A program made the translations under genes and the position numbers. DNA of 64,000 nucleotides from a virus. The notes beneath the pieces were generated by a model. It was not told where the DNA came from and made no database searches. It was given only the letters and a program-made list of their open reading frames with translations. Location: IMG/VR virus record IMGVR_UViG_3300028392_000030, positions 1-64,000 of that record, one strand, 5' to 3'. Each line of letters starts with the position of its first letter. Positions within the stretch are counted from its first letter, which is position 1. Below, one piece after another: positions 3 to 52,110 of the stretch.

Positions 3-3000
3 CTAGACAAACCTGGCGCAACACAGACCGGCACAGGAACCTATGAACTGTTCGATAGACGCACTGGTGAGGTAATTCCCGACACTGAATTCTCTGCTCG
101 CAATCAATCAGATGTAAACACAAGATTAGATGATTATATCAATTTTGGGCCCCACGGCATAGGCACAGTAGATGCTAGATTGGTGTTTGGTGCCAGACCC
201 GTGGGTGATGCTGATCAAGGCGCCCTGCCTAACAGTCTACGACCCACCGGCCCAGGCCCTTGGGAAATCTACAACAGAGCGACTGGTAACTCGGCTGCCA
301 ACCTCAGTGTGGACGGCCGACCCATAACCGATCGTGCTCAAGCACAACGCATGGCCATGGGAAGCATTGCCGCTGAAAATTATGACCGTTTTGGTGTGAG
401 AACTAGAGGCACCGAATCAAACAGCAACTGGCGCATAATCTACAGTGCCACTGGAGAAACACTGAACACTGTAAGTGGTGCCAGTCGGGATCAGGCTCTA
501 GCCGTGCTACACGACACAGCCCGTAGAAATGGTGTGCGTCCTGACGTGCTGAGCCTGCAGTCTGCGCCAGCCTCGGATGACATTCCTGAAGTGCCTGTAG
601 ACGTGGCACAGAATTTCCCGCAGAACAGGACCGATGGTCGTGACACGAATTACTCATTCAGAGACTTGTTTGGCAACAGATATCAGACCAGTTCAGCACC
701 GGCAGGCAACAGTTTTAGTGGACAGTGGAAAGTCATGTTGGACGGAGAAGAAGTGTGGCGCTTCCGTGGTGTGGGCAACAATCAAGCAGATGCCAATCGC
801 ATTGCTCAAACCTGGTTGCAGGATCAACGCAGTCAAGGATCGTTATCTCCTGCACCGGGTGCAGATGTTGAAGTGGTGCCGATCATGACGGAAAGCGTTA
901 CAGAAAGTGCAAACCCTGCTGATACACTCTACTTCTTTGATGTGGCCAAAGGCGGCCGCAGTTTCGACCATCTTGATTTGAGAATCATGGGCCTAAGACA
1001 AACTCAAAAGGGCCGGTGGTATTATCAACCCGGTCGTGACAGCACTGACCTGCTGACAACGGCCACGCTGAAACATTTGGAAAAAACATTGAATGTGCCG
1101 GCCCGTGCTTGGACCAAGCCTGTGGCAGAAACACGTATCATTGATCCTGAACATGTGGATGTATACTATCGTCCAGTTCCAGGCAGTCAGGGCCGACGTG
1201 TGGTCGCCCAAAATATTCCTGTTGCCACGCTAGATGCACTGTTACAAAAACTCAGTGACAAATATTCAGTGCCAGTTGAAAGTTTCGAATGGACTCCGAC
1301 CGAACCAATCACAGAAGCCTTTGATCAACCTTACACTATACAATGGAGCAAACAAAATGGTGACTGGCATGCCACAGCTGACTTGGATGACGGCAGTGAA
1401 CTGATCGTGCTGTTTATGGCTCAAGGCGACAACAGTTGGATGGTAGAGTTTGAGCGTGATGAAAACATGGAAATCACCGGTGAAGGCGATGCTCCTCGTG
1501 TGTTTGCCACAGTATTGACTGCCATGCAACAATTTATTGCTAAGAAGAAACCAGCGCGGTTAAACTTCAGTGCAGAAAAAGAGGATGACCCTACCGGCAG
1601 CAGAGCTAGACTGTATGATAGAATGCTTCGACGCTACGTCACTGGTAGCGGTTACGATTTAGCAAGAAGCGATATGCCAGGCGGCGCAACTTATACTCTA
1701 ACAAAACAAGCGCCGGCGGTGGCGGAAGGCAAGGTCAAACTCCACACAGATCCTGGCTATTTTGGGGCAGAAGTAGATGACACAGGGTTTGATAGCCTAC
1801 CAGTTGTCAACATACCCGCTAATAAACTTGTGGGCTTTGAGCCAGATTCAAAGATGAATCAACCAAAAAGCCAAGCCAATGTTGAAAAGATTGTTGCTGG
1901 CTTAAAGAAGGGTGACAAGTTGCCACCATTGTTGGTTCGCAAATATAAAAATGGATATCAGGTATTAGATGGTCATCATAGATTCTGGGCATATAAATTG
2001 TCGGGTACAAAAAGTATTCCTGTGCGAATAGTAGCAGACAAGGACATAGAAGAAATTGGCAAACAAGGTGTGGCGGAAGGCAAGTTGACAGAATCTGCCA
2101 TATTCCTAAACCCCAACACCGTAATAGTTGGACAACAACACGGCCAGCCCTTGGAGTTGTCTCCTGAGACATTGAAAAAAGTTCAAGCCATAGCGGCTCA
2201 ACACGGTGCCTGGTACGAAGGCAACGGTGCTGATCGTGCCTACACTCGCGGGGTGATTGACCGCTATGTGGGCAGTTTTGATGACGAGGTAGCAAAAACT
2301 GCCAGCCCCAATGATCCAAAATGGATTTATGTTTTGTTTGCCAATGTAGATGCCAACAATAGAATACAACGAGTAGGTGTGGATCCCAAAGACACCATAT
2401 TCAATAGACTCATGGTCACTGCCCAAGACAACTCGTTCCAAGGCATGGGATTCACTGCCTCGGCACTGGAAAAATTTCTATCATTGGCCAGCGAAGGCAA
2501 ATATGATTTTGTCAAAATGAGTCAACAGCCGGCTACTGAAGAAAATCTCACTCAATTCCTCAAAGCCGGCGAGGCTTTGATGTGGCCCAGCAATTGGGAG
2601 CAATATCCCAATCGTGCAGGCAAGATAGCACGAGCGGCCACAGTTGATACTAGAGACCAATACCTAGCCACAAGAAAAGCCGGAGTCTATGTGGTGGGTG
2701 CTGGACACTTAAAAGCGGTACAAAATATCTCGGGCAAGCAAGGTGTGGCGGAAGGTGTTGACATTGGGCAAGAGTGGATGAGTGACACAGAGTTAGACCA
2801 GTATGTGCCAGATCGATTGCAACAGCAATGGCGTGAATTGCTAGGTTATGATCGGAACGGCAATCCAAGTGCGTTATGGGTCAACTTAACAGGAGGCTAC
2901 GAGCCGGATGTTCGTGATCCACAACATCGTGCCCTTATGGTTAAAGTGGCCAACAAGTGGTTTGCCGCAAAAAAGATTCCCAATGTCAAATTCTATGATG

Positions 3001-3227
3001 TCAAGGATGCTGATGATGAATTAGAGTGGTTGGTTCAAATTGGTCAGCAAGATGTGGCGGAAAACTTTGCTGATGGCAAGGGCCCTGGACGTCCAGGAGA
3101 TAGTCAGCGTCATGGCATACCTAAGGGTGCCACTATGGCTCAACTAGAAAAGGCCAGCCACGCAAAGGGTCGAAAAGGACAGCTGGCCCGTTGGCAACTA
3201 AATATGCGTAGAGGACACAAAAAATGA
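3..3227 (+). CDS. Modular internal-head-type polyprotein (5'-truncated): GNAT-like module, ParB/Srx-like module, TraB/Tiki-like module
   Basis: Frame is open from base 3 (LDKPGATQTG...), so the true start is upstream of the window; modules separated by [VIL]-[AT]-E / QGVAEG linkers; LPPLLV...VLDGHHR ParB/Srx motif. Confidence 0.7.
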   Translation, partial: LDKPGATQTGTGTYELFDRRTGEVIPDTEFSARNQSDVNTRLDDYINFGPHGIGTVDARLVFGARPVGDADQGALPNSLRPTGPGPWEIYNRATGNSAANLSVDGRPITDRAQAQRMAMGSIAAENYDRFGVRTRGTESNSNWRIIYSATGETLNTVSGASRDQALAVLHDTARRNGVRPDVLSLQSAPASDDIPEVPVDVAQNFPQNRTDGRDTNYSFRDLFGNRYQTSSAPAGNSFSGQWKVMLDGEEVWRFRGVGNNQADANRIAQTWLQDQRSQGSLSPAPGADVEVVPIMTESVTESANPADTLYFFDVAKGGRSFDHLDLRIMGLRQTQKGRWYYQPGRDSTDLLTTATLKHLEKTLNVPARAWTKPVAETRIIDPEHVDVYYRPVPGSQGRRVVAQNIPVATLDALLQKLSDKYSVPVESFEWTPTEPITEAFDQPYTIQWSKQNGDWHATADLDDGSELIVLFMAQGDNSWMVEFERDENMEITGEGDAPRVFATVLTAMQQFIAKKKPARLNFSAEKEDDPTGSRARLYDRMLRRYVTGSGYDLARSDMPGGATYTLTKQAPAVAEGKVKLHTDPGYFGAEVDDTGFDSLPVVNIPANKLVGFEPDSKMNQPKSQANVEKIVAGLKKGDKLPPLLVRKYKNGYQVLDGHHRFWAYKLSGTKSIPVRIVADKDIEEIGKQGVAEGKLTESAIFLNPNTVIVGQQHGQPLELSPETLKKVQAIAAQHGAWYEGNGADRAYTRGVIDRYVGSFDDEVAKTASPNDPKWIYVLFANVDANNRIQRVGVDPKDTIFNRLMVTAQDNSFQGMGFTASALEKFLSLASEGKYDFVKMSQQPATEENLTQFLKAGEALMWPSNWEQYPNRAGKIARAATVDTRDQYLATRKAGVYVVGAGHLKAVQNISGKQGVAEGVDIGQEWMSDTELDQYVPDRLQQQWRELLGYDRNGNPSALWVNLTGGYEPDVRDPQHRALMVKVANKWFAAKKIPNVKFYDVKDADDELEWLVQIGQQDVAENFADGKGPGRPGDSQRHGIPKGATMAQLEKASHAKGRKGQLARWQLNMRRGHKK

Positions 3228-4372
3228 AAGCTAATGAATTTATAACTGAAAAGTGGAGTCAAAAATACAAAAGCAGTATCAACTGTAGCCACCCCAAAGG
3301 TTTCAGCCAACGGGCGCACTGTGCTGGTAAGAAAAAGCACAACGAATCGGTTGAGATGGAAATGGTGTGTGAAGACTGTGGCATGTGTGAAACACACGGC
3401 AATGTCATGGAAATCAAGAAAGGTCAAAAAGACGCAAATGGATATACCCGTTGTTGGCCAGGTAAACACGCAGAAGGTACCAAGAAGGGCAAAAATGGTG
3501 GACCAGTTCGTAACTGTGTGCCCAATGAAAGCATTAACGAAGGTCAACAACTAAGTGTTCAACAGTTGGCACAAATTAGTGATGCAGCATTGGATGCAGC
3601 ATATGGTTATGGTCGTAGTAGTCCAGGCAATACATTTGGTTGGCAGGCCAACTTAAAATCTGCGTCCTTTGCCAAACAAATGATTGATCGTGGTGTTACA
3701 GATATTGAGGCAATTAGCGATGCCATCCACAAAGGTTGGAATGTAACAGCACAGGCGTTTGTTAAAAATCCACAGATGTTTGATGATTCCAAAACAATGG
3801 CTCCAGAAAAACTACAAGCCAAGATAGCACAGCGTCAGAAACTAATGACTCAACAGTATGCTCAATTGCCCGAAGATGAAAAAGAAAAAGATCGTGTGGT
3901 TGCTCGTGCTATGCTACAAGCTATCGGGGGTCAACAAGAATTGTCTGAAGAGTTTGATCTAATAGAAAGCATTATAACTGATCTTGCTGATCGCAATGGT
4001 GTAGATGCAGAAGCAATCTGGGAAGATTTAGAAAGTTTGTCAGATGATGAGTTGTATGTGTTTGCTGTGACACAGGAACCTGCCAAAGAAAATCTATCAG
4101 AAACCGAAGCATGGCAAAAAGCCAACAATCGCGACAAAACAGATGGCATGAGTCGTAAGGCTGTTAAAACATATCGCAGAGAACACCCAGGATCAAAACT
4201 ACAAACTGCTGTGACTACCAAGCCTTCAAAGTTGAAGAAGGGTAGTAAAGCATCAAAGCGCCGCAAGAGTTATTGTAGTCGCAGTCGTGGTCAAATGAAA
4301 ATGCACAACATCAGCTGTGCTAAAACTCCAGACAAGGCCATATGTAAAGCACGTCGTAGATGGAATTGCTAA
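3224..4372 (+). CDS. Modular internal-head-type protein with RyR-like domain and basic Cys-rich modules
   Basis: N-terminus MKANEFITE resembles T4 IP targeting peptide; HKGW...YAQLPEDEKEKDR RyR-like motif; very basic C-terminus ending RRRWNC. Confidence 0.65.
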   Translation: MKANEFITEKWSQKYKSSINCSHPKGFSQRAHCAGKKKHNESVEMEMVCEDCGMCETHGNVMEIKKGQKDANGYTRCWPGKHAEGTKKGKNGGPVRNCVPNESINEGQQLSVQQLAQISDAALDAAYGYGRSSPGNTFGWQANLKSASFAKQMIDRGVTDIEAISDAIHKGWNVTAQAFVKNPQMFDDSKTMAPEKLQAKIAQRQKLMTQQYAQLPEDEKEKDRVVARAMLQAIGGQQELSEEFDLIESIITDLADRNGVDAEAIWEDLESLSDDELYVFAVTQEPAKENLSETEAWQKANNRDKTDGMSRKAVKTYRREHPGSKLQTAVTTKPSKLKKGSKASKRRKSYCSRSRGQMKMHNISCAKTPDKAICKARRRWNC

Positions 4373-5299
4373 ATGAGACTACGCGAATTTGCACCCGCAG
4401 GTGGTGACGATAGACAGCCCGACGAAGAAGAAATCCTACGTCAGCTGGCCGCACAATGGTGGCAAGGTGACGAAGATCCACGTGCCGAACGCACACTGGC
4501 GTCAATGGGTTGGGAAATTGGCCAAGACGAAGGATACGACAACGGTGGTGCGTTTGTTGTGCGAGCCGGCGACATCAACGGCAATAGTTTTATCAGTTGG
4601 CCTGCTGAGGAGTTAGAAGAACTAGAAGAAGGATGGAAAAGTGCCCTAGGTGGTGCTGCACTGGCTGGAGCAATGGCCCTAGGTGGTGGCGCAGCAAATG
4701 CAAAAATGACTGCACCTGTTGCACAAGCACCAGCCGCAACAACTGCTCAATCAACAGCAGCTGCACCGGTACGACCAGCTGCCTTAACACAACAAGCGGC
4801 ACCTGCACAACAATCTTCACTAGTAGATCAATTAAAAGCAGTTGCCGTGGCCAGCGGAATCAAAGGTACCGAATTGGCACAGTTTTTGGCACAATGTGCC
4901 CATGAAAGTGCAAACTTTGCCAGTATGGAAGAACGTGGTAGTCCAACTTACTTTACTAAAAAGTACGAACAGAACCCACGCAAGGCACGGATCCTAGGCA
5001 ACAAGGTCAAAGGTGATGGTGAACGTTTCAAAGGACGTGGGTTTATACAATTGACCGGGCGTGACAATTATACTAGAGCTGGTGCTGCATTAGGATTGCC
5101 ATTAGCACAACAACCAGATTTGGCTGCTAGACCCGACGTTGCTGCCAAAGTGGCAGTATGGTATTGGCAAAATCGTGTTGCTACAAAAATAAAAGATTTC
5201 GGCAACACCGCGGCTGTAACTAAAACTATCAATCCTGCCGCAAAAGGCCTACAGTCACGCAAAGACCAATTTAAATCTTATCAAGTAGCACAACGATGA
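4373..5299 (+). CDS. GH19 (chitinase/lysozyme-like) hydrolase with N-terminal head-targeting module
   Basis: AQFLAQCAHES, FKGRGFIQLTGRDNY, AVWYW, TKTIN GH19 motifs. Confidence 0.85.
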   Translation: MRLREFAPAGGDDRQPDEEEILRQLAAQWWQGDEDPRAERTLASMGWEIGQDEGYDNGGAFVVRAGDINGNSFISWPAEELEELEEGWKSALGGAALAGAMALGGGAANAKMTAPVAQAPAATTAQSTAAAPVRPAALTQQAAPAQQSSLVDQLKAVAVASGIKGTELAQFLAQCAHESANFASMEERGSPTYFTKKYEQNPRKARILGNKVKGDGERFKGRGFIQLTGRDNYTRAGAALGLPLAQQPDLAARPDVAAKVAVWYWQNRVATKIKDFGNTAAVTKTINPAAKGLQSRKDQFKSYQVAQR

Positions 5300-6585
5300 A
5301 AGCCCATGAGTTTGTTGTTGAATCTGTTAAAACTGCTTCGGCTCAACAGGTTTGGAATTATGTAGATGGTATACACCCAGACGATCAAAAGGGCGGTGGG
5401 TTCTTAAAAAAATTGATCCTGCGTTATCCGCAGTATGAACTACAACGTGTTTCACTGTCCAGTTTACACTTGCCCGATCAAGAGTATGATGATGAAGAAC
5501 AGGAACCTGAAGCGGATCCTTACAATCGAGTGCAGGTGATAGACCCTGAACATGCTGGCGAATACAGCGCAAACTTTGTAGATCGCAGACCCATTGTGGT
5601 AGATTCAGATGGTTGGATCATCGATGGCAATCACAGAGCCTGGGCTGCTGCCGAGCTGTTGAACAAGACCGATATCATGGCCTGGGTTCCTATTGAGCAA
5701 CTTACAGAATTAGGCAATGCACCAGCTGACTATAAACCCAATAGAAAAAGATCCCGCAGTTTGTTTCACGCCACAGTAGACAATCAATGGGTGGATGTAT
5801 TCTTTGACCGCAGTGAGTTCAATGATACCTTGCATATTACATTTGCCGTAAATGGCGACTATGATACACCTGAAAAACCTACCTCGGCCAGTAAGAGCAC
5901 AGTTCGCATATTGAGCACAGTTCTCAATATTATTAAGCAACAACTGCCCGAATACATAGCAAAATCCCGGCCACCTGGCATATCATTCACTGCCAAAGGT
6001 GACAACCGTGCCAACCTGTATCGCCGATATTTTGTTCCTGTGGTGCAGAACATCTTGGGACCAAAATGGCAGCATGAAGAATATCCCAGCATGGGAATGA
6101 CTGTGTTCCATTGGCGGCCAGTGAAGAAACAAGGTGTCACAGAAGCATTTGACCAACCTTATGCTTTCAGGTGGGACAACAATGACGACCTTGATCCCGA
6201 TCTTGATCGTAGATATGATGCCCTGGCGCGACTGCCAGATGGCACCAATCTAACAATCAATTTCTACACTGATTCTAACTATGCTGACAATGAAGATTGG
6301 ATGGTTGAATTCTGGCGTGGGAATCGTTTGGACATTTCCGGAGCCGGTGATGCTCAGCGTGTGTTTGCCACAGTGTTGACTGCTATTGGTCAATTCATAG
6401 AAATGGAACAGCCTGAAACCATTCGTTTCACGGCCGACAAAGATGTTGAGCCTGGACAAAAAGCCATGAGCCGAAGCAATCTCTATGATCGCTTGGTGCA
6501 ACGCTATGCTCAGTCTTGGGGTTATAGATTGGATCGCAGTGACATGGCCAACACTACAGTTTATCTACTATACCGAATAAGATGA
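5296..6585 (+). CDS. Modular polyprotein: ParB/Srx-like module plus two GNAT-like modules
   Basis: MKAHEFVVES start; RPIVVDSDGWIIDGNHR; EAFDQPY module shared with 3..3227. Confidence 0.65.
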   Translation: MKAHEFVVESVKTASAQQVWNYVDGIHPDDQKGGGFLKKLILRYPQYELQRVSLSSLHLPDQEYDDEEQEPEADPYNRVQVIDPEHAGEYSANFVDRRPIVVDSDGWIIDGNHRAWAAAELLNKTDIMAWVPIEQLTELGNAPADYKPNRKRSRSLFHATVDNQWVDVFFDRSEFNDTLHITFAVNGDYDTPEKPTSASKSTVRILSTVLNIIKQQLPEYIAKSRPPGISFTAKGDNRANLYRRYFVPVVQNILGPKWQHEEYPSMGMTVFHWRPVKKQGVTEAFDQPYAFRWDNNDDLDPDLDRRYDALARLPDGTNLTINFYTDSNYADNEDWMVEFWRGNRLDISGAGDAQRVFATVLTAIGQFIEMEQPETIRFTADKDVEPGQKAMSRSNLYDRLVQRYAQSWGYRLDRSDMANTTVYLLYRIR

Positions 6586-7634
6586 CCGGCGCTCGTCCAA
6601 AGTATACCCTTTTTCACAAGCCCGATCGTGGCATTCTTACCGACATCAAGATGTGGTGGGATATCAATGGTGATGATTATGAGTTTGTAGATAGAGATTA
6701 TACAGGAACTGTTGATTTTTTCGTTCTAAATAGCTACAACAGTTCAGTTCAATTCAATTACCGACAAAAACTTAACTTTAGAATATTTCATGGCTTTGAA
6801 GATTTTGTTAGAGAACAATGCAATCGTCGAGACTGCTGGACAATAACCAATGGTTGGGATCCTACCATTGACAATGATCATGTAATTTTCAATGACTTTT
6901 TGTTCAATAGAACCAAGGCCTATTACAGTCAGTATCCATTCTCACCAGATACACAATTATGGTATTACTATGACGCGATCGCCTACAAGGCACCACGACT
7001 AAGCACAGCTGATGCAAAAAAGAAAATTTTTGTTTCGCCTGGAAAAACATACAATGGTACAAGAAAATATCGCAGTCAACTCGTGTCGAAAATAAGCAAT
7101 TACAGCGAGCTAGGTTATGTCGGCAATCGAGACGACGATCCCAGTTTGTTTTTATACAGCCAAGCTGAATTTCCAGGTGCTTTTACCAACATCGACCAGT
7201 TAGAAAATGCAACACAACCACAATGGGACGATCGTGGTTATTCTCCTCCGCATGTTGAATACTATAAAAATACATTCGTAAGTATCTACGGAGAAACCAT
7301 TGAATACGGCAATACCATTATGATCACTGAAAAAACCTGGGATCCCCTGATCAAAGGACATTTCATTTTACCATTTAGCTCGTGTAACTTTATACAACGA
7401 CTGCGAGACGTTGGTATCCGATTACCTGCATTTATAGACTACTCGTATGATCGTGAACCCGATGTAGAACGAAGATGGCAACTATACAGCGCCGAAATAG
7501 ATAGACTATTAGCAATGGATTTAGACACGTGGCGACAGCATTGGAAAGATAATCTAGCGTTGTTGTTGGCAAATCAAAGATATTTTCAAATTAGAGATTA
7601 TGATCGCGTAGATCTTGCACAACTCTTACCGTAG
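6582..7634 (+). CDS. GT10-like putative glycosyltransferase
   Basis: SIYGET...ITEKTWDPLIKGHFILPF...IDYSYD motif shared with two paralogues in the window. Confidence 0.5.
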   Translation: MTGARPKYTLFHKPDRGILTDIKMWWDINGDDYEFVDRDYTGTVDFFVLNSYNSSVQFNYRQKLNFRIFHGFEDFVREQCNRRDCWTITNGWDPTIDNDHVIFNDFLFNRTKAYYSQYPFSPDTQLWYYYDAIAYKAPRLSTADAKKKIFVSPGKTYNGTRKYRSQLVSKISNYSELGYVGNRDDDPSLFLYSQAEFPGAFTNIDQLENATQPQWDDRGYSPPHVEYYKNTFVSIYGETIEYGNTIMITEKTWDPLIKGHFILPFSSCNFIQRLRDVGIRLPAFIDYSYDREPDVERRWQLYSAEIDRLLAMDLDTWRQHWKDNLALLLANQRYFQIRDYDRVDLAQLLP

Positions 7635-7667
7635 TAATGCGATACAAAAACATATAACGATTCCCAC

Positions 7668-7673
7668 TAAATA
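7668..7673 (+). promoter_or_regulatory. Late-type promoter TAAATA
   Basis: TAAATA 5 nt before ATG at 7678. Confidence 0.55.
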
Positions 7674-7677
7674 CAGC

Positions 7678-7971
7678 ATGACCAAGCAATTCATACGGGT
7701 GTTGTATAATATCGACTGCGAGTGGGAAAGTTTTGAGCCCACGTATCGCACCTATGTCAACGACGAATTATTTGCGGAAAGAACCTGGCGTTGGACTGAC
7801 TGCTATCTTGAAGAAATGTTACAAATTGAAGCAGAGCCGGGTGAGTATGTCATACGTCATGAATTGGTTCCGCCACACTTGGCCACACTCGCTGTAACAG
7901 ACATGCGGGTAGATTTTGGCCCTGCAAATGTAAAAAATAATGTGCTAAGGATTCGCAATGAGACTGCATGA
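7678..7971 (+). CDS. Hypothetical protein
   Basis: ORF; start moved to the ATG after TAAATA. Confidence 0.6.
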   Translation: MTKQFIRVLYNIDCEWESFEPTYRTYVNDELFAERTWRWTDCYLEEMLQIEAEPGEYVIRHELVPPHLATLAVTDMRVDFGPANVKNNVLRIRNETA

Positions 7972-8164
7972 ATTTGTCAACTTACGAGAAGATGGTGCTA
8001 CTGTGGGCAGCACAGTCAGCGGTAGTATAGCCCCTGTAGCCATGCCGCTAGGCGGGATGATTAGTAGAAATGGTGGCCATTTCTTTACGGGTGCTAAATA
8101 CACTACTGACGACGCAACGCCTAACACGCCTGCAGAGTATAAAAAGTATAAACGGAAGAAATAA
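7958..8164 (+). CDS. Small head-targeted-type protein
   Basis: MRLHEFVNLRE N-terminus like neighbours; basic C-terminus. Confidence 0.6.
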   Translation: MRLHEFVNLREDGATVGSTVSGSIAPVAMPLGGMISRNGGHFFTGAKYTTDDATPNTPAEYKKYKRKK

Positions 8165-8604
8165 TGCTAGCTGATTTACTAAAAACTTACTTGGCCTCAA
8201 CATTTGCCTATTACTTAAAGGCTCACATGTTTCATTGGAACGTGGAGGGTCCAGATTTTGGTGAATTGCACGAATTTTTCAGCAACATATATGAAGATGC
8301 ATTTGGAGCAGTAGATCCTATTGCTGAATTTATCCGTACCACAGAAGAATATGCACCCGGAAGCCTGAGTCGCTTCCAAGAATTAAGTCAAATACAGGAC
8401 CAAATCAAGGTTCCTCGTGCCCGATTGATGTTAGAAGAATTACTCGCAGATACACAGACCATGATAGACTTGAGCAAACAAGCGTTTGACGTGTCGACTC
8501 AAGAGGGTCGTGACGATGTTGCTAACTTTGCCGCAGACAGAATGGCTGCACATGGCAAGTATATGTGGCAGCTCAAGAGTTATTTAAAGGCAGTAAGGGC
8601 ATGA
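8164..8604 (+). CDS. dps: Dps/ferritin-like DNA-protection protein
   Basis: KAHMFHWNVEGPDFGELHEFF...VDPIAE...HGKYMWQLKS ferroxidase motifs. Confidence 0.9.
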   Translation: MLADLLKTYLASTFAYYLKAHMFHWNVEGPDFGELHEFFSNIYEDAFGAVDPIAEFIRTTEEYAPGSLSRFQELSQIQDQIKVPRARLMLEELLADTQTMIDLSKQAFDVSTQEGRDDVANFAADRMAAHGKYMWQLKSYLKAVRA

Positions 8605-8607
8605 TCC

Positions 8608-9297
8608 GTGACACAAGACCATAACGATATCTATACTATTGTTGAACGTCTTCGAGTAATTGAAGAAGGACTAAACACGAATCAACGAAGTGTCAATCAA
8701 CTTTCAGCTACATTCAAACCAAAAACTGTGGCAGTGTTGACAGCCAAAACAGATCCTAAGAATCCCTTGGCTGGCAAACTAGTTGGCTGCGAAGAAGGCG
8801 AAGAGCCAGACGAGCCATTGGAAGAAGCTGTTACCAGCGAGGATGTGCTGGACCGAGTCAAATCTTCGTTTGCTGATTACTTGAAAACGGTGTCAGACGA
8901 AATCCGTCAAGACTCAGATCTCAAAGATAAAAAACACGAAGACTCAGACATAAAAGAAAAAAGCACAACAGATCGTGCGCTGGTGGCCAAACAACAAAAA
9001 ATCAAAGAAGCTGACAGTGAAATAGGTGCAGCATTGAGTGGTGAGATTCCTGCCCAACAACCTGCAGGTGAACCAGGTGTAAGTATGAAAGAATCAGCAC
9101 CAGTTAAAACTGTTACCAACGAATGCGGCCTATGGGAAGTGCATGGCAATGAGAAGTCCGGGTTTGAAATTCGTCATGGCAATCGTCGATTGCCCACACG
9201 TTTTAGAAATTTAGATGAGGCCGAAATGGCCTTGGAGATGTTTGCAGCACGTCGTCGCAAAGTAAACGACTCAGCAGATTACATCGACGAAGCATAA
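8608..9297 (+). CDS. Hypothetical acidic protein (possible processed head protein)
   Basis: 229-aa ORF, GTG start, several x-x-E linkers. Confidence 0.6.
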   Translation: MTQDHNDIYTIVERLRVIEEGLNTNQRSVNQLSATFKPKTVAVLTAKTDPKNPLAGKLVGCEEGEEPDEPLEEAVTSEDVLDRVKSSFADYLKTVSDEIRQDSDLKDKKHEDSDIKEKSTTDRALVAKQQKIKEADSEIGAALSGEIPAQQPAGEPGVSMKESAPVKTVTNECGLWEVHGNEKSGFEIRHGNRRLPTRFRNLDEAEMALEMFAARRRKVNDSADYIDEA

Positions 9298-9307
9298 GGA
9301 AAACGAA

Positions 9308-11740
9308 ATGTTTGCATTGGATCTATTCAACACACAGTACGAACGAGCACTCAAAGAAGGTGCAGTAGACAAAGTGGTCAGCGAAGGTGGCCCATACGAT
9401 TTGCCCGGTATTGACTACAACCGTCCTGGAGACGCATCACGTCGACCAAAACCATCCGGCGGCACTACACCGAGACGTCATCCAGATGATCCTGACTTTA
9501 TGGATCCAGACCAACGTAGACTACGTGCCGAACAAGAACGCTTGAAAAAGGCCTGGGCAGAAAAAAACAAAGGTGTAGCAGAAGAAACAGATCCATTCGG
9601 CGGTTACAAACAATCACCCAGAGCATTTGGTGTTGGCAACTTTCAACGCATTGTGAAGGCCAATATGGGCAATCTTCCTACAGTTACCCTGGAGTTTGCT
9701 GATCCCAACGACAACATTGTGTTGGACAGAAAAGGTGTTGACTTAATCAGCGATTACTATGATGGATTAAAAACTGACGCAATTAAAAACCATTTTATCT
9801 ATCGTGTGTTGCCCAGCGCAGATGAAGTGTTGACCATATTGAAACGACTAGGATGGCACGATGCAGTTCAACCCGAACTTCCTGGCATACCTCGACAAGG
9901 CGAACTGCCACTGCAAGAAAAAAAAAGATTAGATCGTAATACAGATGTACCTGCTGGCGATGTCAAGGTTGCTAGAGAACTACAAAAACTTCGTGCCCAA
10001 TATCCTGCAGCACGAAGCGACGTAGAAGTTGTGGCCAAAAGTGAAATAGATTCTAATGAGCGCAGTCAACAGCAATTGGCCGCCATCAAAGGTGCCAACA
10101 ACGAACAAGACCGCTTGCTACAACAACTGGTGGCCCTGGATCGAAAACAAGGTACCGAAATTGGCAGTCTAGACAATGAAAATGATCGTCTTGATCAACA
10201 GTTAAAGCATGTAGAGAAAACCAATGCACGATTAGCACAGGCCATTGGACAGATGAGTGGTCGAGCACAATCAGTTTCGCCGCAATCTCGAGTGGTTGAT
10301 ATTCTCCCAAATGCTCCTGCTGATGCACCAAGCCAACCACAGTCACAAGCGGCTGCTGAGCCAACCGAACCCGTGCAGCAATCAAAATCAAATGCAATAG
10401 GTCGCATGGCTCAAAGTTTAGGTCAAACACGACAAGTTCAAGGCATTGATCAAGGCCCGGCACCCAGCATCAGGGGTGACAACGTAAGTTACATCGATCC
10501 GGTACGACGAGCCCAGGCCGCGATTGCCAAAAAAGACCTAGGGCCCATGGCCAAGCGCATGATCGATAAAGGAGTGCTGACCAGAACCGGTACCGACGAA
10601 GGGCTATTGGGTTTTATAGCAAATAAAAAATCTGAACCAACGAAAAAATCTGAACCGGTTGACCCAATGATTGCAAAAATAGTATCTAATAGACAGAACC
10701 CGCAATCACGAGTTCCTGGAGCAAAAGCCAAAGTGTATCACGGTTACGATGAATACAATCGTGCCAAGGCAGTGGGTGATGTAGAAGAATCCACAGTAAA
10801 TGAATTTGCATCTGGGCAAGGTGGAGATTCAGGCAACTATTTCCAGGCCCTGGCTTCGGCCTGGTATAATGGCACCTTTGACACAGGTAGCCTGCAAAAA
10901 GGTATCAAGAGTCAAGAGGACGTGGAACGCTTGTTGAATCGTGGCGTTGTTTGTCCTGATGGCAAGACTCGTAAACTGCATATTGATTACAATGCCAACT
11001 TTGACGGTGTGGAAATCTACAGTGATGACTATTATGAATACGGTGATCACGATGACACCATAGACAGTCGCACAGGCCAAAAGTGGGGACCATATGACTT
11101 TATGGCATTCTCAGATGAAGACTTGAGTGAAAGTCTGAACGAATTGTCAACAGATAAGTTGGCACAATATAAAACAGCCTCGGCACTTGATGCTGGTGCT
11201 GCTGACAAGCGTGGTGACTACGAGCGTGGTGACAAACGTTTTGCAGGAATCGTAAAAGCAACCAAAAAACAATTTGCCAACGATCTCAAGAAACATGGTC
11301 AGCAAGGTGTGGCGGAAGGCGTCTATCGCGGCGACTGGGTACGACATCCAGACAATCCATGGCAGATAGGTCAAATACAAAGTATTGACAATGGTCAAGC
11401 CGTGGTCACATGGAAAAAGACTGACAAAAGAAAAAAGGCAATGTCATCAACTCATGCAGTTGATGCCCTACAACATGCCAGGCGTGAGTTCTCTCAATTG
11501 ACACAACCCACACATACACCGGGCATGGCGGAAGGCTCCAGCACTGCCAGTGATGCAGTTGAACGGGCTATTCTCAATCGCATCATGGTAGCGCACACAG
11601 ACCTGTTGATGCGGTTTGGACCAGACAAAGTCATGCAGGCCGCTGAAGAAGTTGCTTACGGAGTAGGCGATGTTGATGAAATTGGCACCAGCGATGTCAG
11701 TGCTTATGTCAATCAAGTAAGACAAATACTAGGTGCCTAA
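9308..11740 (+). CDS. Large modular internal-head-type polyprotein
   Basis: GVAEE, QGVAEG, GMAEG, TVNE, SLNE linkers; coiled-coil and SH3-like modules. Confidence 0.7.
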   Translation: MFALDLFNTQYERALKEGAVDKVVSEGGPYDLPGIDYNRPGDASRRPKPSGGTTPRRHPDDPDFMDPDQRRLRAEQERLKKAWAEKNKGVAEETDPFGGYKQSPRAFGVGNFQRIVKANMGNLPTVTLEFADPNDNIVLDRKGVDLISDYYDGLKTDAIKNHFIYRVLPSADEVLTILKRLGWHDAVQPELPGIPRQGELPLQEKKRLDRNTDVPAGDVKVARELQKLRAQYPAARSDVEVVAKSEIDSNERSQQQLAAIKGANNEQDRLLQQLVALDRKQGTEIGSLDNENDRLDQQLKHVEKTNARLAQAIGQMSGRAQSVSPQSRVVDILPNAPADAPSQPQSQAAAEPTEPVQQSKSNAIGRMAQSLGQTRQVQGIDQGPAPSIRGDNVSYIDPVRRAQAAIAKKDLGPMAKRMIDKGVLTRTGTDEGLLGFIANKKSEPTKKSEPVDPMIAKIVSNRQNPQSRVPGAKAKVYHGYDEYNRAKAVGDVEESTVNEFASGQGGDSGNYFQALASAWYNGTFDTGSLQKGIKSQEDVERLLNRGVVCPDGKTRKLHIDYNANFDGVEIYSDDYYEYGDHDDTIDSRTGQKWGPYDFMAFSDEDLSESLNELSTDKLAQYKTASALDAGAADKRGDYERGDKRFAGIVKATKKQFANDLKKHGQQGVAEGVYRGDWVRHPDNPWQIGQIQSIDNGQAVVTWKKTDKRKKAMSSTHAVDALQHARREFSQLTQPTHTPGMAEGSSTASDAVERAILNRIMVAHTDLLMRFGPDKVMQAAEEVAYGVGDVDEIGTSDVSAYVNQVRQILGA

Positions 11741-48132: not shown

Positions 48133-48207
48133 GGGCCAGTAGCTTAATGGTAAAGCAACCGACTCATAATCGGTCGAGTCTTGGTTCAATTCCAAGCTGG
48201 CCCACCA
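48133..48207 (+). tRNA. tRNA-Ile2 or elongator Met (CAT)
   Basis: G1-C72, ACCGA-CTCATAA-TCGGT, GGTTCAA T-loop, CCA. Confidence 0.88.
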
Positions 48208-48313
48208 AACATGCTAAATAACATGATCGTACGAGGCAATCTCGAGGTTGACAGCAAGGTTGTAAAAGGTTACAATTAGCACTCATGTTTAATTTAAAAG
48301 GAAGCAGTATATT

Positions 48314-48517
48314 ATGGTAGTAGGTAAAGTAAAATGGTTTAATGACGCAAAAGGTTTCGGATTCATTACACCAGATGACGGGGGTGAGGATGTATTTGCA
48401 CATTTTTCAGCAATCAATATTAATGGATTCAAAACATTAAAAGAAAACCAAGTGGTAAAATTTGACTTGGTTCAGGGCCCAAAAGGCAAGCAGGCATCAA
48501 ATATTATGCCTGCTTAA
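48314..48517 (+). CDS. csp: Cold-shock protein
   Basis: [24 protein letters not shown]. Confidence 0.95.
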
Positions 48518-48555
48518 TAAATGATAAATAATAGACACAAAAAAGGAGTTTTGTT

Positions 48556-48840
48556 ATGGCATGTGTAGCATCAGCAACATTTCTTGCGTTTGCTCGAACC
48601 AAAGTGGTTTTTGATCGAGAGTTAACTGAAGAAGAAGAAGTTTTGATAAAAATCAAATTGAAAAATACCCTTTGGGATGGATCAACCTGTATGGTCACTG
48701 ATCGTCAAGTTGATGCCAGTCACTACACCCCAACGACCATGTGGTCTCATTTGTCTGATGCGGAAGAATACATATCAATTGTGAATGGATTTAATCCGCC
48801 GCCAACAAGTGTAAGTTTAGAAGACATGAGTTACAAATGA
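48556..48840 (+). CDS. Hypothetical protein (paralogue of next gene)
   Basis: AAGGAG SD; shared DA.E..S..N.F.PPP motif. Confidence 0.65.
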   Translation: MACVASATFLAFARTKVVFDRELTEEEEVLIKIKLKNTLWDGSTCMVTDRQVDASHYTPTTMWSHLSDAEEYISIVNGFNPPPTSVSLEDMSYK

Positions 48841-48872
48841 GTTACAAGTTAAAATAATCAAAGGAGTTTTAT

Positions 48873-49139
48873 ATGTCAAAAGTCGATACTACTTTTCTCT
48901 TTCCTGCTACGGCAGAAAGCGTAATTACATGGGGCAGATCATTGACTGATACTGAATCAGCATTAGTCCAGTCCAAAAAAGGTGCAATGTTTGCGGCTGG
49001 AAATTTTGGGTCTTTTCCAGCCACAGTCAATGGCGTCAGCACATTTGCATGGGTGTCGTCGGATGCAGCGAACGAATTTGTAGCATTTTGCAATACGTTC
49101 ACTCCGCCGCCGGAATCGGCCGTAGTTAATAGTCTGTAA
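48873..49139 (+). CDS. Hypothetical protein (paralogue of previous gene)
   Basis: AAGGAG SD; shared motif. Confidence 0.65.
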   Translation: MSKVDTTFLFPATAESVITWGRSLTDTESALVQSKKGAMFAAGNFGSFPATVNGVSTFAWVSSDAANEFVAFCNTFTPPPESAVVNSL

Positions 49140-49153
49140 AGAATTGTTGTAAT

Positions 49154-49185
49154 CCCTTCCGAGTGAAGGCATTCTGGACGGGGGT
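49154..49185 (+). pseudogene. Truncated tmRNA acceptor-piece relic
   Basis: GCATTCTGGACGGGGGT matches TGTTCTGGACCCGGGT of the intact copy and breaks in the T-loop beside the HNH stop. Confidence 0.5.
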
Positions 49186-49186
49186 G

Positions 49187-49663
49187 TTAGACCCTGCGGA
49201 CCATAAATCCACCATTGGTTACACTACCTCTCAAACAAGCATTTCCAAAGTTGTTAGGATTATAGCCTCGGTCTACACACCACTGGCGTAATCCTTCAAC
49301 TGTTTCCACAGTCCCATCTGGGTGAGTTATTTCGTATAGTTTGCCCTGCCAAGTTTTGCCTCTATTGGCACATACTACTTTCATCTTCTTACTGGCTAAT
49401 TCTCGTTGTATCGGATCCTTCCAACGAAGGTTAGACCTTGCGGCACCTTTTCTACCACCTTCGATCATTGACTGTTTGGCAGCATCAAAGTTAGCATCAA
49501 GTTTGCTTAATCCTTGCCAGGCAACATAATCTTGCCAGTTACCGTGTTGTTCGTATAACAAACGATGTGCTTCAGCATGTTGGTCTACAGTGAGATCAAC
49601 AAGATTACTTGGATCATCTGTGCCTCCTAAATATTTTGGGACAATGTGGTGTTTGTGTAGCAT
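49187..49663 (-). CDS. HNH homing endonuclease
   Basis: HKHHIVPKYLGGTDDPSNLVDLTVDQHAEAH; opposite strand; TAAATA upstream. Confidence 0.85.
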   Translation of the reverse strand: MLHKHHIVPKYLGGTDDPSNLVDLTVDQHAEAHRLLYEQHGNWQDYVAWQGLSKLDANFDAAKQSMIEGGRKGAARSNLRWKDPIQRELASKKMKVVCANRGKTWQGKLYEITHPDGTVETVEGLRQWCVDRGYNPNNFGNACLRGSVTNGGFMVRRV

Positions 49664-49694
49664 AATATTATTTAGTCGAAACCACAGTAAATGG

Positions 49695-49723
49695 TTGACA
49701 AGATTCGACAACTATGCTATACT
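49695..49723 (+). promoter_or_regulatory. Sigma70-type promoter
   Basis: TTGACA-17-TATACT with extended TG. Confidence 0.75.
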
Positions 49724-49798
49724 GTTAGCATATTGATATTATTTCGATATATTTTTAATCCGCCCTTACTGCTAGGGTATTAACCAAAGGAAATTATT

Positions 49799-50122
49799 AT
49801 GGCAAGAAAACACCTATATACTTGGAACAATGGCGAAGACAAAGAGCTGTTTGAGTCTTTGAAACTGATATTAGGGCCCGTGAAAAATTGGAAAGGACAA
49901 ACTTATAAAAGAACTCTTTCGTTTTTAGCGGAAACCAAATATGGAAATTCTAACACAGACATTGGAGCACTTGAAATGAGAGTTGCTTTCTTAACTAGTA
50001 AACAAAAGGCATCTTATTATAGAACTCGTGGCAGAGAAAATGTATTCAAACAAGTTGTAGTTGGTGCTGTGGCGTCGGGTGTAGCAAGTTATAAGGACCT
50101 AGCGCCAAGATTAAATGGGTAA
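49799..50122 (+). CDS. Hypothetical basic protein
   Basis: AAGGA SD; 107 aa. Confidence 0.6.
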   Translation: MARKHLYTWNNGEDKELFESLKLILGPVKNWKGQTYKRTLSFLAETKYGNSNTDIGALEMRVAFLTSKQKASYYRTRGRENVFKQVVVGAVASGVASYKDLAPRLNG

Positions 50123-50140
50123 ATAAAAGTATTGCTGTAA

Positions 50141-50451
50141 AGCCCGTAAGGGAAGAAGCAAAGAGAAAAGTGTTCTGGACCCGGGTTCGACTCCCGGCAT
50201 CTCCACCTAAGTGTATGGGGTATATTTAGGTGGGGATGACTTGGTTTTCGACAGGGCAAAGAGTAACAGAGTGGACAGCACGGTAGGCGATGACCGTAAA
50301 TCAAGCAAATCAAGTAAATGCAAAAGCATCTACAGGCGAAGTAACTGTTTCTGGTAAGAACGTCAAGTTCTCTGCTCGCACAGTGAAAGCCGAATCTTTC
50401 GCAGTTTAATCGCCGCGATAGGGCAGGAAATGCCTCGTAACAGAAACTACC
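50141..50451 (+). ncRNA. ssrA: Circularly permuted (two-piece) tmRNA
   Basis: T-arm and CATCTCCA (to 50205) precede GGGGATG (50232); G3-U70 pair; hairpin intervening segment; tag frame 50320-50409; outer ends approximate. Confidence 0.85.
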
Positions 50452-50454
50452 AGA

Positions 50455-50477
50455 ACCCGCTTCGGCGGGTCTCTTTT
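50455..50477 (+). terminator. Intrinsic terminator
   Basis: ACCCGC-TTCG-GCGGGT then CTCTTTT. Confidence 0.8.
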
Positions 50478-50522
50478 CGACTGTTTGAGTGGATAAAAAT
50501 TACTGTGTATCAGTAAAACCAC

Positions 50523-50528
50523 TAAATA
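50523..50528 (+). promoter_or_regulatory. Late-type promoter TAAATA
   Basis: TAAATA upstream of porin SD. Confidence 0.5.
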
Positions 50529-50570
50529 ATATGTTGGGCACACGTCCACATTCTTATAAGGAAAAACTAA

Positions 50571-51119
50571 ATGAAGAAAATCTTCGCAATCTTGTCTTTG
50601 GCTGTATCAGGTTTGGCCGTTGCTGGCGACAGCGTGACCCTAGAAAGTCAACACATCAACAACGTTACTGGAAACGCACAACAGGTATATCTGTTAGGTG
50701 TTAAGAAAGAAATCAATCAAAACTTTGCCGGTGACGTGCTTATCAGTAATGCTGTAACCGACAACACCAATGCCTTGAGCACACGCATCGAAACAGGTGG
50801 CACTGTTACTGCACCGTTGTATGGTATTGTAAACGGCTACACTCGTGTTGCATTGGGACAAAAGTATAGCAATACTGCCAACTTTACATACTACTCAATC
50901 GAGCCTGGAGTTAGTGTTCCATTTGGTCCGGTGACAGCCAAAGTGGGTTGGCGCACTCGTACTGCTGTTGACAGCGGCAACAACGACCAAACACACACCA
51001 TGCGCTATACATTGGCTTATGCAGTGACTAAAGTTGATACTGTTGCTGTAAGATATGATCGTGTCAATGGCGATAACGATCAAAAGATCTGGACCGTTAA
51101 TTACACACGCGGTTTCTAA
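50571..51119 (+). CDS. Outer-membrane beta-barrel (OmpL/KdgM-like porin)
   Basis: Signal peptide, alternating amphipathic strands, C-terminal NYTRGF. Confidence 0.65.
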   Translation: MKKIFAILSLAVSGLAVAGDSVTLESQHINNVTGNAQQVYLLGVKKEINQNFAGDVLISNAVTDNTNALSTRIETGGTVTAPLYGIVNGYTRVALGQKYSNTANFTYYSIEPGVSVPFGPVTAKVGWRTRTAVDSGNNDQTHTMRYTLAYAVTKVDTVAVRYDRVNGDNDQKIWTVNYTRGF

Positions 51120-51135
51120 AATTTAAAAATCTAAC

Positions 51136-51159
51136 AAAAGGCTCTTCGGAGCCTTTTTT
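51136..51159 (+). terminator. Intrinsic terminator (possibly bidirectional)
   Basis: AAAAGGCTC-TTCG-GAGCCTTTTTT. Confidence 0.85.
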
Positions 51160-51181
51160 AATGATCAACGGAGTTAGCAGA

Positions 51182-51904
51182 ATGGCAAAATTAATAGTAT
51201 GCGGATGTAGTTTGAGTGCTGATAGCATTGACAGGCCAGGAACAGGCTATGGCCATCAAACAGCCAAGCGGTTGGGTTGGGACGTAGAGATACTGGCACG
51301 GCAAGGATGCAGTAACGGTGGTATCCGTATACAAATAGATGAAGCACTACGCCAACAGCCTGATTTTGTCATTGTGGCACCAACATTTTGTGATCGTATA
51401 GAGATTCCTGCTGCCACTGACTGTGGCTACGATAAAACAGCCGGTATTGATAATGTTAACTATGGCACAAATCCATATCGCATGATTTGTGAAAATATAA
51501 CTACGTTGGTTGGGAATTATAACAATCCATATCGCACAGGTGAACTAGATAAAAATACACAGGAGGCGATTCGACAATACATTAACCACATATACGATGT
51601 CAATTGGAAGCGACAGCAAGATGAATGGATCATGCGCGATGGCATTATGCAGTTGTTCTATTCTGGTATACCATTTTTGATTATCGCCGGCGAACTTTGG
51701 AATACCGGAAATATACGCCAAGCTATACCTAAAGTAGTAGACGATCGATACTTGACCCTTGACTACCAAGAAACACCTAATTATGCAATAACCAATTGGC
51801 CGTTTGAAAGCACAGACCCTGGATACCACGGTAGTCCGGCTGGTCAGGAATATTTGGCAGAAATCTATGCCGACAAGATACGCAATTGGCAATATGCCAG
51901 TTGA
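51182..51904 (+). CDS. SGNH/GDSL-like hydrolase
   Basis: CGCSLS, QGCSN, GYHGS. Confidence 0.6.
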   Translation: MAKLIVCGCSLSADSIDRPGTGYGHQTAKRLGWDVEILARQGCSNGGIRIQIDEALRQQPDFVIVAPTFCDRIEIPAATDCGYDKTAGIDNVNYGTNPYRMICENITTLVGNYNNPYRTGELDKNTQEAIRQYINHIYDVNWKRQQDEWIMRDGIMQLFYSGIPFLIIAGELWNTGNIRQAIPKVVDDRYLTLDYQETPNYAITNWPFESTDPGYHGSPAGQEYLAEIYADKIRNWQYAS

Positions 51905-51929
51905 CAAATCATAAATAACCATGTATAAT
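51901..51929 (+). promoter_or_regulatory. Sigma70-type promoter with embedded TAAATA (leaderless start)
   Basis: TTGACA-17-TATAAT consensus. Confidence 0.85.
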
Positions 51930-51935
51930 ACTACT

Positions 51936-52096: not shown

Positions 52097-52110
52097 ATTG
52101 GAAGAAAAAT

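Follow-up and report, generated by a model that had tools for sequence, protein, structure and literature searches.

In the polymorphic toxins of bacteria, the junction motifs VENN (CdiA) and PxxxxDPxGL (Rhs) border the variable module and serve as recombination homology, and the Rhs motif is also a cleavage site; each gene has one variable tip and an immunity gene. Integrons hold an array of exchangeable cassettes between copies of a repeated site. In the gp38 adhesin of T-even phages, hypervariable segments are exchanged by crossovers in small conserved coding motifs (glycine-rich motifs [GRMs]; Tetart 1998, cited in PMC3157838); the GRMs form the structural core of one folded domain, with loops between them. 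In the PeSL cassettes of T4-type hyperplastic regions, short repeats, each an intergenic promoter plus terminator hairpin, flank non-essential genes and mediate their shuffling, and exchange between neighboring direct repeats predicts excised circles (PMC2839356, PMC4122927). Polyvalent proteins are multidomain proteins of phages and conjugative elements, presumed to be delivered together with the DNA and then processed into units; Iyer et al. (2017, PMC5512222) bring up cassette-like variability and assign the processing to a built-in MPTase domain, and a repeated linker is not among the features in their article, which nowhere uses the word “linker.” The T4 internal proteins IPI, IPII, IPIII, and Alt, whose leader is removed by gp21, are separate small genes with one leader each; these capsid-targeting leaders and the variable cargo repertoire between relatives are reviewed in PMC9026906.

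The phage considered here is an uncultured giant T4-like (jumbo) phage, with its nearest cultured capsid proteins (66% identical) in Vibrio phage 2.275.O and the PA5oct group. We analyzed a 64,000-nt stretch (the window) of a 197-kb record that is 57% complete, such that absence from the record does not equal absence from the whole phage. Two large genes in the window are chains of unrelated small proteins, whose recurrent joint is the six-residue linker QGVAEG, encoded by CAA GGT GTG GCG GAA GGY (17-18 nt); we found no published description of it. As in polymorphic toxins, variable modules are bordered by a short conserved motif, but these are viral multicassette chains that lack immunity partners. 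The linker resembles the gp38 GRMs in being a short in-frame coding motif between variable segments of a T4-type phage, here conserved in nucleotides; unlike the GRMs, it joins independent, unrelated proteins (about 70 module families) and is, from its sequence, a likely protease site. It has in common with PeSL the pairing of short repeats with modular shuffling, but it is coding, 17 to 18 nt long, bound to the frame, and devoid of a hairpin. The polypeptides are similar to polyvalent proteins in combining many unrelated conflict-type domains, with ParB-like nucleases and lysozymes, in a phage late or virion context; by contrast, a Pfam search (E up to 0.1, in a database that may have no MPTase model) found no peptidase family in either polyprotein, and the joint fits a prohead protease and is conserved as DNA.

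Gene 1 (positions 3 to 3227, + strand) has 1,074 codons in the record, its 5' end being lost at the contig end, and comprises at least eight modules, with borders after residues 142, 295, 376, 432, 575, 692, 917, and 1020, where the tblastn match ends of relatives accumulate. Gene 2 (9308 to 11740, + strand; 810 amino acids) comprises at least four modules, with linkers after residues 92, 670, and 742. Three adjoining cargo-type genes (3224-4372, 4373-5299, and 5296-6585; overall 3224 to 6585, + strand) follow gene 1, the second of which encodes a Glyco_hydro_19 lysozyme-like domain; the conflict-type domains of the polyproteins include ParB-N-like, DUF6934, and DUF3553 modules.

The 17-mer CAAGGTGTGGCGGAAGG occurs exactly at 2064-2080, 2739-2755, and 11303-11319, all on the + strand, and with three mismatches at 3048-3064, whereas shuffled sequence contains on average 0.08 matches and none of 100 shuffles attains 4. 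All linker copies are in frame within the open reading frames (ORFs) 3-3227 and 9308-11740. Along gene 1, all on the + strand and with a slash marking the joint after Glu, a degenerate linker KPVAE/T (1116 to 1133; GTG GCA GAA) lies at the border between residues 376 and 377. Farther along lies a DUF6934-like module (1299 to 1727, + strand), which Vibrio nt-1-like phages encode as a stand-alone ORF and which has a paralogue at the C terminus of ORF 5296-6585 (repeat D2). The linker PAVAE/G (1713 to 1730; CCG GCG GTG GCG GAA GGC), containing the partial copy GTGGCGGAAGG from 1719, and the canonical QGVAE/G (2064 to 2081; CAA GGT GTG GCG GAA GGC) flank a ParB-N-like (nuclease-type) module (1728 to 2078, + strand), which, scanned on its own, matches Pfam PF02195 at 26.7 bits (cutoff, 26.3). 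A second canonical linker (2739 to 2756) ends in GAA GGT, and the variant QDVAE/N (3048 to 3065) precedes the basic C-terminal tail module FADGKGPGRP… (3063 to 3224, + strand), which also ends polyproteins in relatives, after [V/M]AE/N (8 instances, 7 partners). In ORF 5296-6585, the linker-like QGVTE/A (6130 to 6147, + strand; GTC ACA GAA), with the looser copy KQGVTEA at 6127-6145, precedes the DUF6934 module. The + strand joints of gene 2 are the degenerate KGVAE/E (9569 to 9586; GTA GCA GAA; looser copy NKGVAEE at 9566-9584), a canonical QGVAE/G (11303 to 11320), and the variant PGMAE/G (11519 to 11536; CCG GGC ATG GCG GAA GGC), with the partial copy GGCATGGCGGAAGG at 11522-11535. The original prediction had placed three exact 17-mers and several partial and looser copies in this region, and we located every one of them at its reported position.

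That prediction had also held that the best copies keep a minority Ala codon, and the counts bear this out. GCG GAA occurs in 6 of the 6 best copies (all [V/M]-A-E sites of the window), compared with 6.7% GCG among the 4,768 Ala codons of the 197-kb record and 12 of 175 in the two ORFs when the motif is excluded; the chance of six GCG codons is 0.069^6, about 1e-7, assuming independent sites. All five Val codons in the copies are GTG, a codon with a background share of 26 to 44%. The rest of the genome has 17 V-A-E sites, none of them with GCG, and a codon-pair effect therefore does not explain the bias. Related IMG/VR contigs yield 103 nonredundant linkers, in which Ala is encoded by GCG in 78, GCA in 22, GCC in 3, and GCT in none (GCG background, 8%), Val is GTG in 65 and GTA in 15 (GTG background, 31%), the preceding Gly is GGT in 70 and GGC in 17, and Gln is CAA in 68 and CAG in 2; with one count per upstream module family, GCG remains in 53 of 68. 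A second, independent set of 80 loci, fetched by the exact 17-mer, gives GCG in 78/102, GTG in 73/92, and GGT in 74/78 of its other linkers. Conservation thus lies far above genomic codon usage, both here and in about 200 linkers of relatives, as had been predicted for a motif maintained as DNA.

Translational selection, in which the codons pause the ribosome between modules, ensure accurate decoding, or allow a restart at GTG or ATG, is a very unlikely source of this pattern. No Ala codon is rarer than GCG, most linkers have GTG or ATG at the V/M position, and third-base variation appears to stay within codon sets that one tRNA can read by wobble; however, the common codons GGT, GAA, and CAA are equally fixed, GCA, which the tRNA for GCG can read and which the genome uses five times as often, is in the minority, and GTA, which is no start codon, occurs in 15 to 20% of linkers. 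The sole Shine-Dalgarno-like AAGG is 1 nt from the GTG, and this codon choice is absent from the noncanonical borders ([I/V]-T-E).

The silent sites could also be constrained by a nucleotide word with a function other than recombination, such as a site for binding or cutting by a factor (Chi-like, nuclease, or modification) or an RNA signal. This reading, which we consider improbable, draws on the strictly strand-specific conservation, the purine/pyrimidine pattern at third positions, and the location of all copies per record on one strand in five related records (two of them 97 to 99% complete). Yet 102 of 103 exact 17-mer copies in the second set are in the single reading frame that gives QGVAEG at a module joint, and the remaining copies of TGGCGGAA genome-wide, all in other reading frames, are few and scattered. 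The word, which is no palindrome, lacks a complementary partner in the 197 kb; homologues of the gene that contains its one inverted near-copy (7868-7883) do not retain that copy, and the unrelated flanks preclude any local fold at the linker.

Divergence of the silent sites of the linker is decoupled from that of its flanks. Fourfold sites of the linker are 64% identical across junctions with unrelated flanks (chance, 31%), and linker identity stays at 0.5 to 0.8 while the fourfold identity of the flanks ranges from 0.18 to 0.91. Variants of the linker are mainly transitions (about 122:12), as in pairs >95% identical (165:32), even where the flanks are saturated. We infer that recombination maintains this DNA identity. 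Passive descent with a functional filter, in which the linker does no more than offer a protease site or flexible joint, all copies stem from one ancestor, and other junctions were lost, would yield DNA identity with no role in recombination. Linker variants are single transitions away from one consensus, which is what such descent predicts, but it does not account for silent sites that fail to diverge with their flanks.

The arrangement of modules in relatives bears further on this choice. Internal match ends from tblastn are concentrated at linkers (p = 4e-26 and 5e-6), the first value being that of gene 1, where 43 of 119 fall within 6 amino acids of a canonical linker, and in rows of aligned DNA the homology between relatives stops at the linker edge, to the nucleotide. 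Selection for intact modules alone would enrich breakpoints at linkers. The 107 linker instances join 68 x 68 module families in 104 different junctions: the module VDIGQE… downstream of the linker at 2739 has six different upstream partners in relatives, …LVQIGQ upstream of that at 3048 has eight different downstream partners, and …TQPTHT upstream of that at 11519 has four, while the linker at 11303 and the 48 nt downstream of it are identical to a related locus whose upstream sequence is unrelated. The first two linker codons and the third base of Val follow the upstream module, the residue after Glu follows the downstream module, and the third base of Ala is intermediate; as the halves of the linker travel with different modules, crossovers must fall in the GTG GCG GAA core. 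Two loci (L019 and L021) with flanks 93 to 96% identical differ by one 414-nt (138-residue) module between linker direct repeats, and a 70-residue module present once in L115 (98.8% identical) is tandemly duplicated in L157, the middle linker being a hybrid of the outer two. Comparative footprints of this kind point to crossover within the motif, and the breakpoints of gain, loss, swap, and duplication do lie inside it at nucleotide resolution, as foreseen by the original prediction.

For passive descent, which we judge unlikely, it can be said that selection for intact modules must operate anyway and that shuffling or splitting also affects the borders after residues 142, 295, and 432 of gene 1, which have no DNA motif. 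Against it stand the perfect register at all 104 junctions, since random breaks would rarely match in two 18-nt targets, and the hybrid linker of L157 and clean indel of L019/L021, which are footprints of repeat-to-repeat crossover. Every relative is a metagenome assembly and the joint is a repeat, so that assemblers might have joined contigs there; such an artifact is highly improbable, in that the repeat of 17 to 25 nt is below the usual final k-mers of assemblers, which are longer, that arrangements recur across samples (L014/L015, L016/L017/L018, and L035/L036), and that modules are in frame with ORFs open across every junction.

The record encodes a T4 gp21-type prohead protease (Peptidase_S77, PF03420; 79.7 bits, E = 1.9e-23; record positions 157715-158155), upstream of and adjoining a gp23-type capsid gene. 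T4-family prohead proteases cleave after Glu in x-X-E motifs (PMC5694885), and [V/M]-A-E at every canonical joint agrees in sequence with such a hydrophobic-x-Glu motif. The three adjoining ORFs begin with MKANEFITE, MRLREF…, and MKAHEFVVE, leaders that resemble the T4 capsid-targeting sequence, and in relatives separate genes open with MRAxEFxxE precisely at the point where gene 1 is fused. This combination of protease gene, motif, and T4-like leaders on neighboring genes makes it plausible that the linker is a cutting site of the head protease, and the polyproteins may accordingly be cleaved and packaged; the N terminus of gene 1 is cut off by the contig end, and that of gene 2 (MFALDLF…), unlike such a leader, counts against the cargo reading. 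The parallels to T4 IPI, IPII, IPIII, and Alt are thus a gp21-family gene with a predicted cut after Glu, adjoining genes with MKxxEF[I/V]xE leaders, and cargo that varies between relatives (PMC9026906). The differences are that many unrelated modules share one ORF and that a repeated internal linker, the predicted cut site, is fixed as DNA and marks points of exchange.

The original prediction had likened the linker to an integron inside polyprotein genes. Its silent-site conservation and its breakpoints in the motif hold, and an array of exchangeable cassettes between copies of a repeated site is likewise found, but the likeness goes no further: exchange is in frame inside an ORF, no tyrosine recombinase of the IntI type (PF00589) was matched in the 197-kb record (57% complete), and the 17-mer, read directly, has no internal or adjacent inverted repeat that could form an attC-like imperfect palindrome. 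With neither integrase nor attC-like structure, the comparison is an analogy only; copies of the linker number only about 3 to 6 per genome.

We favor, as the moderately probable reading, cargo polyproteins with protease-cut joints whose DNA doubles as a short-homology crossover patch. The two genes would encode polyproteins that are probably packed into the prohead, where the gp21-type protease probably cuts the chains after the Glu of [K/Q]-Q-G-[V/M]-A-E/G. The same 17 to 18 nt coding for the joint would serve as the patch, and crossover there, between co-infecting relatives or between copies within one genome, would thereby swap, delete, or duplicate whole modules in frame. Presumably a module could enter further genomes only with a linker that agrees with the common sequence, and linker halves would be mixed in every exchange; the linker DNA would therefore act as one shared, homogenized pool, which would hold silent positions, the rare GCG included, near one consensus. 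Short-homology recombination is the most likely mechanism, and in its general form it explains the data without a dedicated enzyme. As a point against, 17 to 18 nt is short for homologous recombination; no RecA/UvsX recombinase was found in the 197-kb record (57% complete).

A stronger version, which we advance tentatively and at somewhat less than even chance, is that of a true in-frame cassette joint: modules would be semiautonomous, moving among the cargo genes of co-infecting giant phages via the 17- to 18-nt word, possibly through excised circles, and silent positions would be under frequency-dependent selection on modules, a drifted linker meaning no spread. If so, exchange at the linker would be a counterpart, within coding sequence, of cassette exchange in integrons or PeSLs, and giant phages would gain a rapidly reassortable arsenal of injected proteins.

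The 17-mer CAAGGTGTGGCGGAAGG, the DNA word of the six-residue linker QGVAEG that joins unrelated polyprotein modules, occurs exactly at positions 2064, 2739, and 11303, where 0.08 matches would be expected, and partial copies at 1719, 3048, and 11522, together with looser ones at 6130 and 9569, lie where the original prediction had placed them. The linker copies are all in frame within two long ORFs, gene 1 (3 to 3227, truncated by the contig end) and gene 2 (9308 to 11740), and follow the peptide pattern [Q/P]-[G/A/D]-[V/M]-A-E-[G/N]; other genomic copies of TGGCGGAA are few, and all are in different reading frames. Each of the six best copies encodes Ala with GCG, as had been claimed, and GCG is indeed a minority codon, accounting for 6.7% of Ala codons across the genome and for 12 of 175 in both ORFs outside the motif (P of ~1e-7 for six of six, given this ORF background). 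Codon-pair context as the cause is ruled out, since none of the 17 V-A-E sites elsewhere in the genome uses GCG.

This linker feature is real and family-wide. Among 50 related IMG/VR loci, retrieved using both polyproteins as queries, TGGCGGAA appears in about 85 forward copies and 3 reverse copies, and the 103 linkers in unique contexts show the synonymous conservation that the prediction implied: Ala is encoded by GCG in 78, GCA in 22, GCC in 3, and GCT in none, Val by GTG in 65 and GTA in 15, the preceding Gly by GGT in 70 and GGC in 17, and Gln by CAA in 68 and CAG in 2, against a background in the same ORFs of 8% for GCG, 31% for GTG, and 38% for GGT. Counting each upstream module family once leaves GCG in 53 of 68. 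In IMG/VR, the exact 17-mer occurs in at least 120 stretches, on contigs of up to 343 kb; in 80 loci among these, 102 of 103 exact copies encode QGVAEG in frame, and the other linkers of these loci, which played no part in fetching them, have GCG in 78 of 102, GTG in 73 of 92, and GGT in 74 of 78. Five related records (two of them 97 to 99% complete) hold 2 to 5 strict copies each, within each record all on one strand and in one to three clusters.

Several other sources of constraint on the linker were considered. Internal translation starts at GTG or ATG were rejected, as GTA occurs in 15 to 20% of linkers and the AAGG is 1 nt away from the start, and a rare-codon pause or selection for accuracy leaves unexplained both the fixed common codons and the preference for GCG over GCA. 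A search of the 197-kb record for an antisense or trans-pairing partner, with G:U pairs allowed, found only the linkers' own complement. The window does contain an inverted near-copy at 7868 to 7883 (TTCCGCCACACTTGGC), 14/16 complementary and inside a conserved 118-codon gene (7615 to 7971), but it is not kept in homologues of that gene in relatives and is probably due to chance, so that, with no other partner in the 197 kb, pairing was set aside.

The breakpoints between modules fall in the motif, in agreement with the proposal that it serves as a crossover site. Ends of tblastn matches in relatives cluster at gene 1 residues 575, 692, 917, and 1020 and at gene 2 residues 92, 670, and 742, that is, at linkers (P = 4e-26 and 5e-6 for the two proteins), and DNA identity between relatives ends at the linker edge. 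In one related contig (L010), compared with the window at 11303, the linker is identical and the downstream module is identical for at least 48 nt, while the upstream DNA is unrelated. Drawn from 68 families of upstream modules and 68 of downstream ones, the 107 linker instances make 104 different pairings; the module ending in LVQIGQ has 8 different successors in 8 instances, and that starting with VDIGQE has 6 predecessors in 6. Position-by-position comparison shows that inheritance with the upstream module covers the first two codons of the linker and the third base of Val, that the residue after Glu goes with the downstream module, and that the third base of Ala goes with neither, which places crossovers inside GTG GCG GAA.

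Recent events display the same borders. Two related loci (L019 and L021), 93 to 96% identical on both sides, are set apart by a single 414-nt (138-residue) module lying between direct repeats of the linker, the two alignments overlapping by 25 nt. Another (L157) carries in two tandem copies a 70-residue module that is single in its relative L115 (98.8% identity), and its middle linker is a hybrid, the distal linker contributing the 5' part and the proximal one the 3' part, the outcome expected of unequal crossing-over. The first and middle joints of L157 (~815 to 835 and 1025 to 1045) share the unusual spelling GGT GTC GCA GAA GGT, and the distal joint is consensus; a minority variant was thus copied along with the duplication.

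Silent sites of the linker are uncoupled from the flanking sequence. Between junctions with unrelated flanks, 4-fold sites of the linker are 64% identical (31% by chance), and with one homologous flank, linker identity remains at 0.5 to 0.8 for flank 4-fold identities anywhere from 0.18 to 0.91. Conservation of the linker thus exceeds that of saturated flanks and falls slightly short of that of near-identical ones, as would be expected if linker sequence came from a shared, well-mixed pool. Linker variants are nearly all transitions, a pattern that might have indicated a purine/pyrimidine constraint or selection on wobble pairing. In these phages, transitions outnumber transversions 5.2-fold at >95% identity, the ratio falling to ~1 at 70 to 80%, and the linker counts (122:12, a ratio of ~10) do not clearly differ from those of pairs >95% identical (165:32; P = 0.07). 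The pattern is thus no independent sign of a purine/pyrimidine constraint, and the idea of wobble-pairing selection was dropped; the linkers read as kept young, with no special purine/pyrimidine rule.

The window comprises positions 1 to 64,000 of the source record (197 kb, 42% G+C, CheckV completeness of 57%), in which the genes for a major capsid protein of the T4 gp23 type and a prohead protease of the gp21 type (Peptidase_S77; 157658 to 158302) lie at 157 to 160 kb. The nearest cultured capsid proteins, 66% identical, belong to Vibrio phage 2.275.O and the Pseudomonas PA5oct group, jumbo phages of 285 to 350 kb. The 12-kb region gave no DNA-level match to phage records by megablast, and protein searches for cultured relatives matched single modules only. 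In bacterial genomes (596 Gb), the exact 17-mer occurs only as single copies in unrelated, mostly high-GC bacteria, at about the number expected by chance, and gives no clue to the host. The window also carries, at 48133 to 59579, fourteen tRNA genes, including tRNA-Val(TAC), tRNA-Gly(TCC), and tRNA-Glu(TTC) and without tRNA-Ala, and a two-piece tmRNA with a 29-residue tag.

Cleavage by T4-family prohead proteases occurs after Glu in x-X-E motifs (PMC5694885), a rule that the V-A-E|G of the linker (bar, predicted cut) fits. The N terminus of the capsid protein (159432 to 160628 of the record, outside the window) is extended by ~50 residues, in which L-L-E|G occurs twice (residues 5 to 8 and 17 to 20), candidate maturation cuts by the same protease. 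The ten-residue capsid-targeting sequence of T4 internal proteins, removed by gp21 (PMC9026906), is resembled by the N termini of neighboring genes (MKANEFITE, MKAHEFVVE, and MRLREF), and we infer that linkers are cleaved and modules packaged into the head. At window 870 to 905 (residues ~290 to 301), gene 1 runs continuously in frame through VVPIM-TESVTES, whereas in five relatives the ORF stops at this point (PVMI*) and an overlapping gene starts with a capsid-targeting-like leader, MRAxEFxxE (L022, 7137; L028, 6690; L006, 369; L008, 10785), which reads as a gene fusion or fission.

Among the modules, one is ParB-N-like and one DUF3553-like, and most have no family match; stand-alone homologues exist in other phages, of DUF6934 in Vibrio nt-1-like phages and of another module in a Synechococcus phage. 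The DUF6934-like module occurs twice in the window (1299 to 1727 and 6148 to 6582; 77% identity over 70 nt, 1468 to 1537 versus 6329 to 6398); in one gene P-I-T-E|A stands in front of it, in the other Q-G-V-T-E|A. A basic tail of ~54 residues beginning FADGK/R (3063 to 3224) is the last module of many polyproteins, with varying modules in front; it follows [V/M]AE|N in eight related loci (L007, L010, L012, L022, L028, L043, L047, and L051) and may be a DNA-binding or core-anchoring piece. The ORF at 3224 to 4372 ends in a similarly basic DUF6321 domain, and the cargo genes include a Glyco_hydro_19 (lysozyme/chitinase-type) protein with the MRLREF leader (4373 to 5299) and a ferritin-like protein (8164 to 8604).

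The likeness to an integron that had been proposed fails for both the integrase and the site structure: no tyrosine recombinase was found in the 197 kb of this 57%-complete record, and the linker is not palindromic and has no attC-like fold. RecA/UvsX was likewise not found in the record. For targeting and processing, the closest precedent is the T4 internal proteins; for crossovers that swap segments within small conserved coding motifs, it is the glycine-rich motifs of T-even gp38 (PMC3157838). PeSL cassettes (PMC2839356) and polyvalent proteins (PMC5512222) are further precedents; the paper on the latter relies on a built-in peptidase and does not mention a repeated linker. A literature search did not find QGVAEG in a phage context.

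We thus regard the linker as reasonably likely to be a dual-use joint, a probable prohead-protease site that also supplies short DNA homology for in-frame module exchange. Of the two uses originally predicted, crossover is supported by the in-motif breakpoints, and proteolysis is suggested by the fit to the gp21 rule; our confidence is much higher than this for linker conservation and the breakpoints, and lower for their causal link and for cleavage.

In giant phages, many proteins enter the cell together with the DNA, and how such arsenals diversify is poorly understood. A simple rule for this seems to be in place here: one short word doubles as the joint between proteins, as a likely protease site, and as an address for recombination, so that any module can adjoin any other with the reading frame intact. 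The linker is a clear example from nature of silent codon positions being constrained by something besides the protein, and with it the old "linker" idea of modular phage evolution can be tested within a gene. Its design could be adapted to load chosen proteins into T4-type capsids. Because linkers set the module borders, small stand-alone proteins can also be listed directly from them (~70 families in these loci); these proteins are likely early-acting factors for host takeover or anti-defense.
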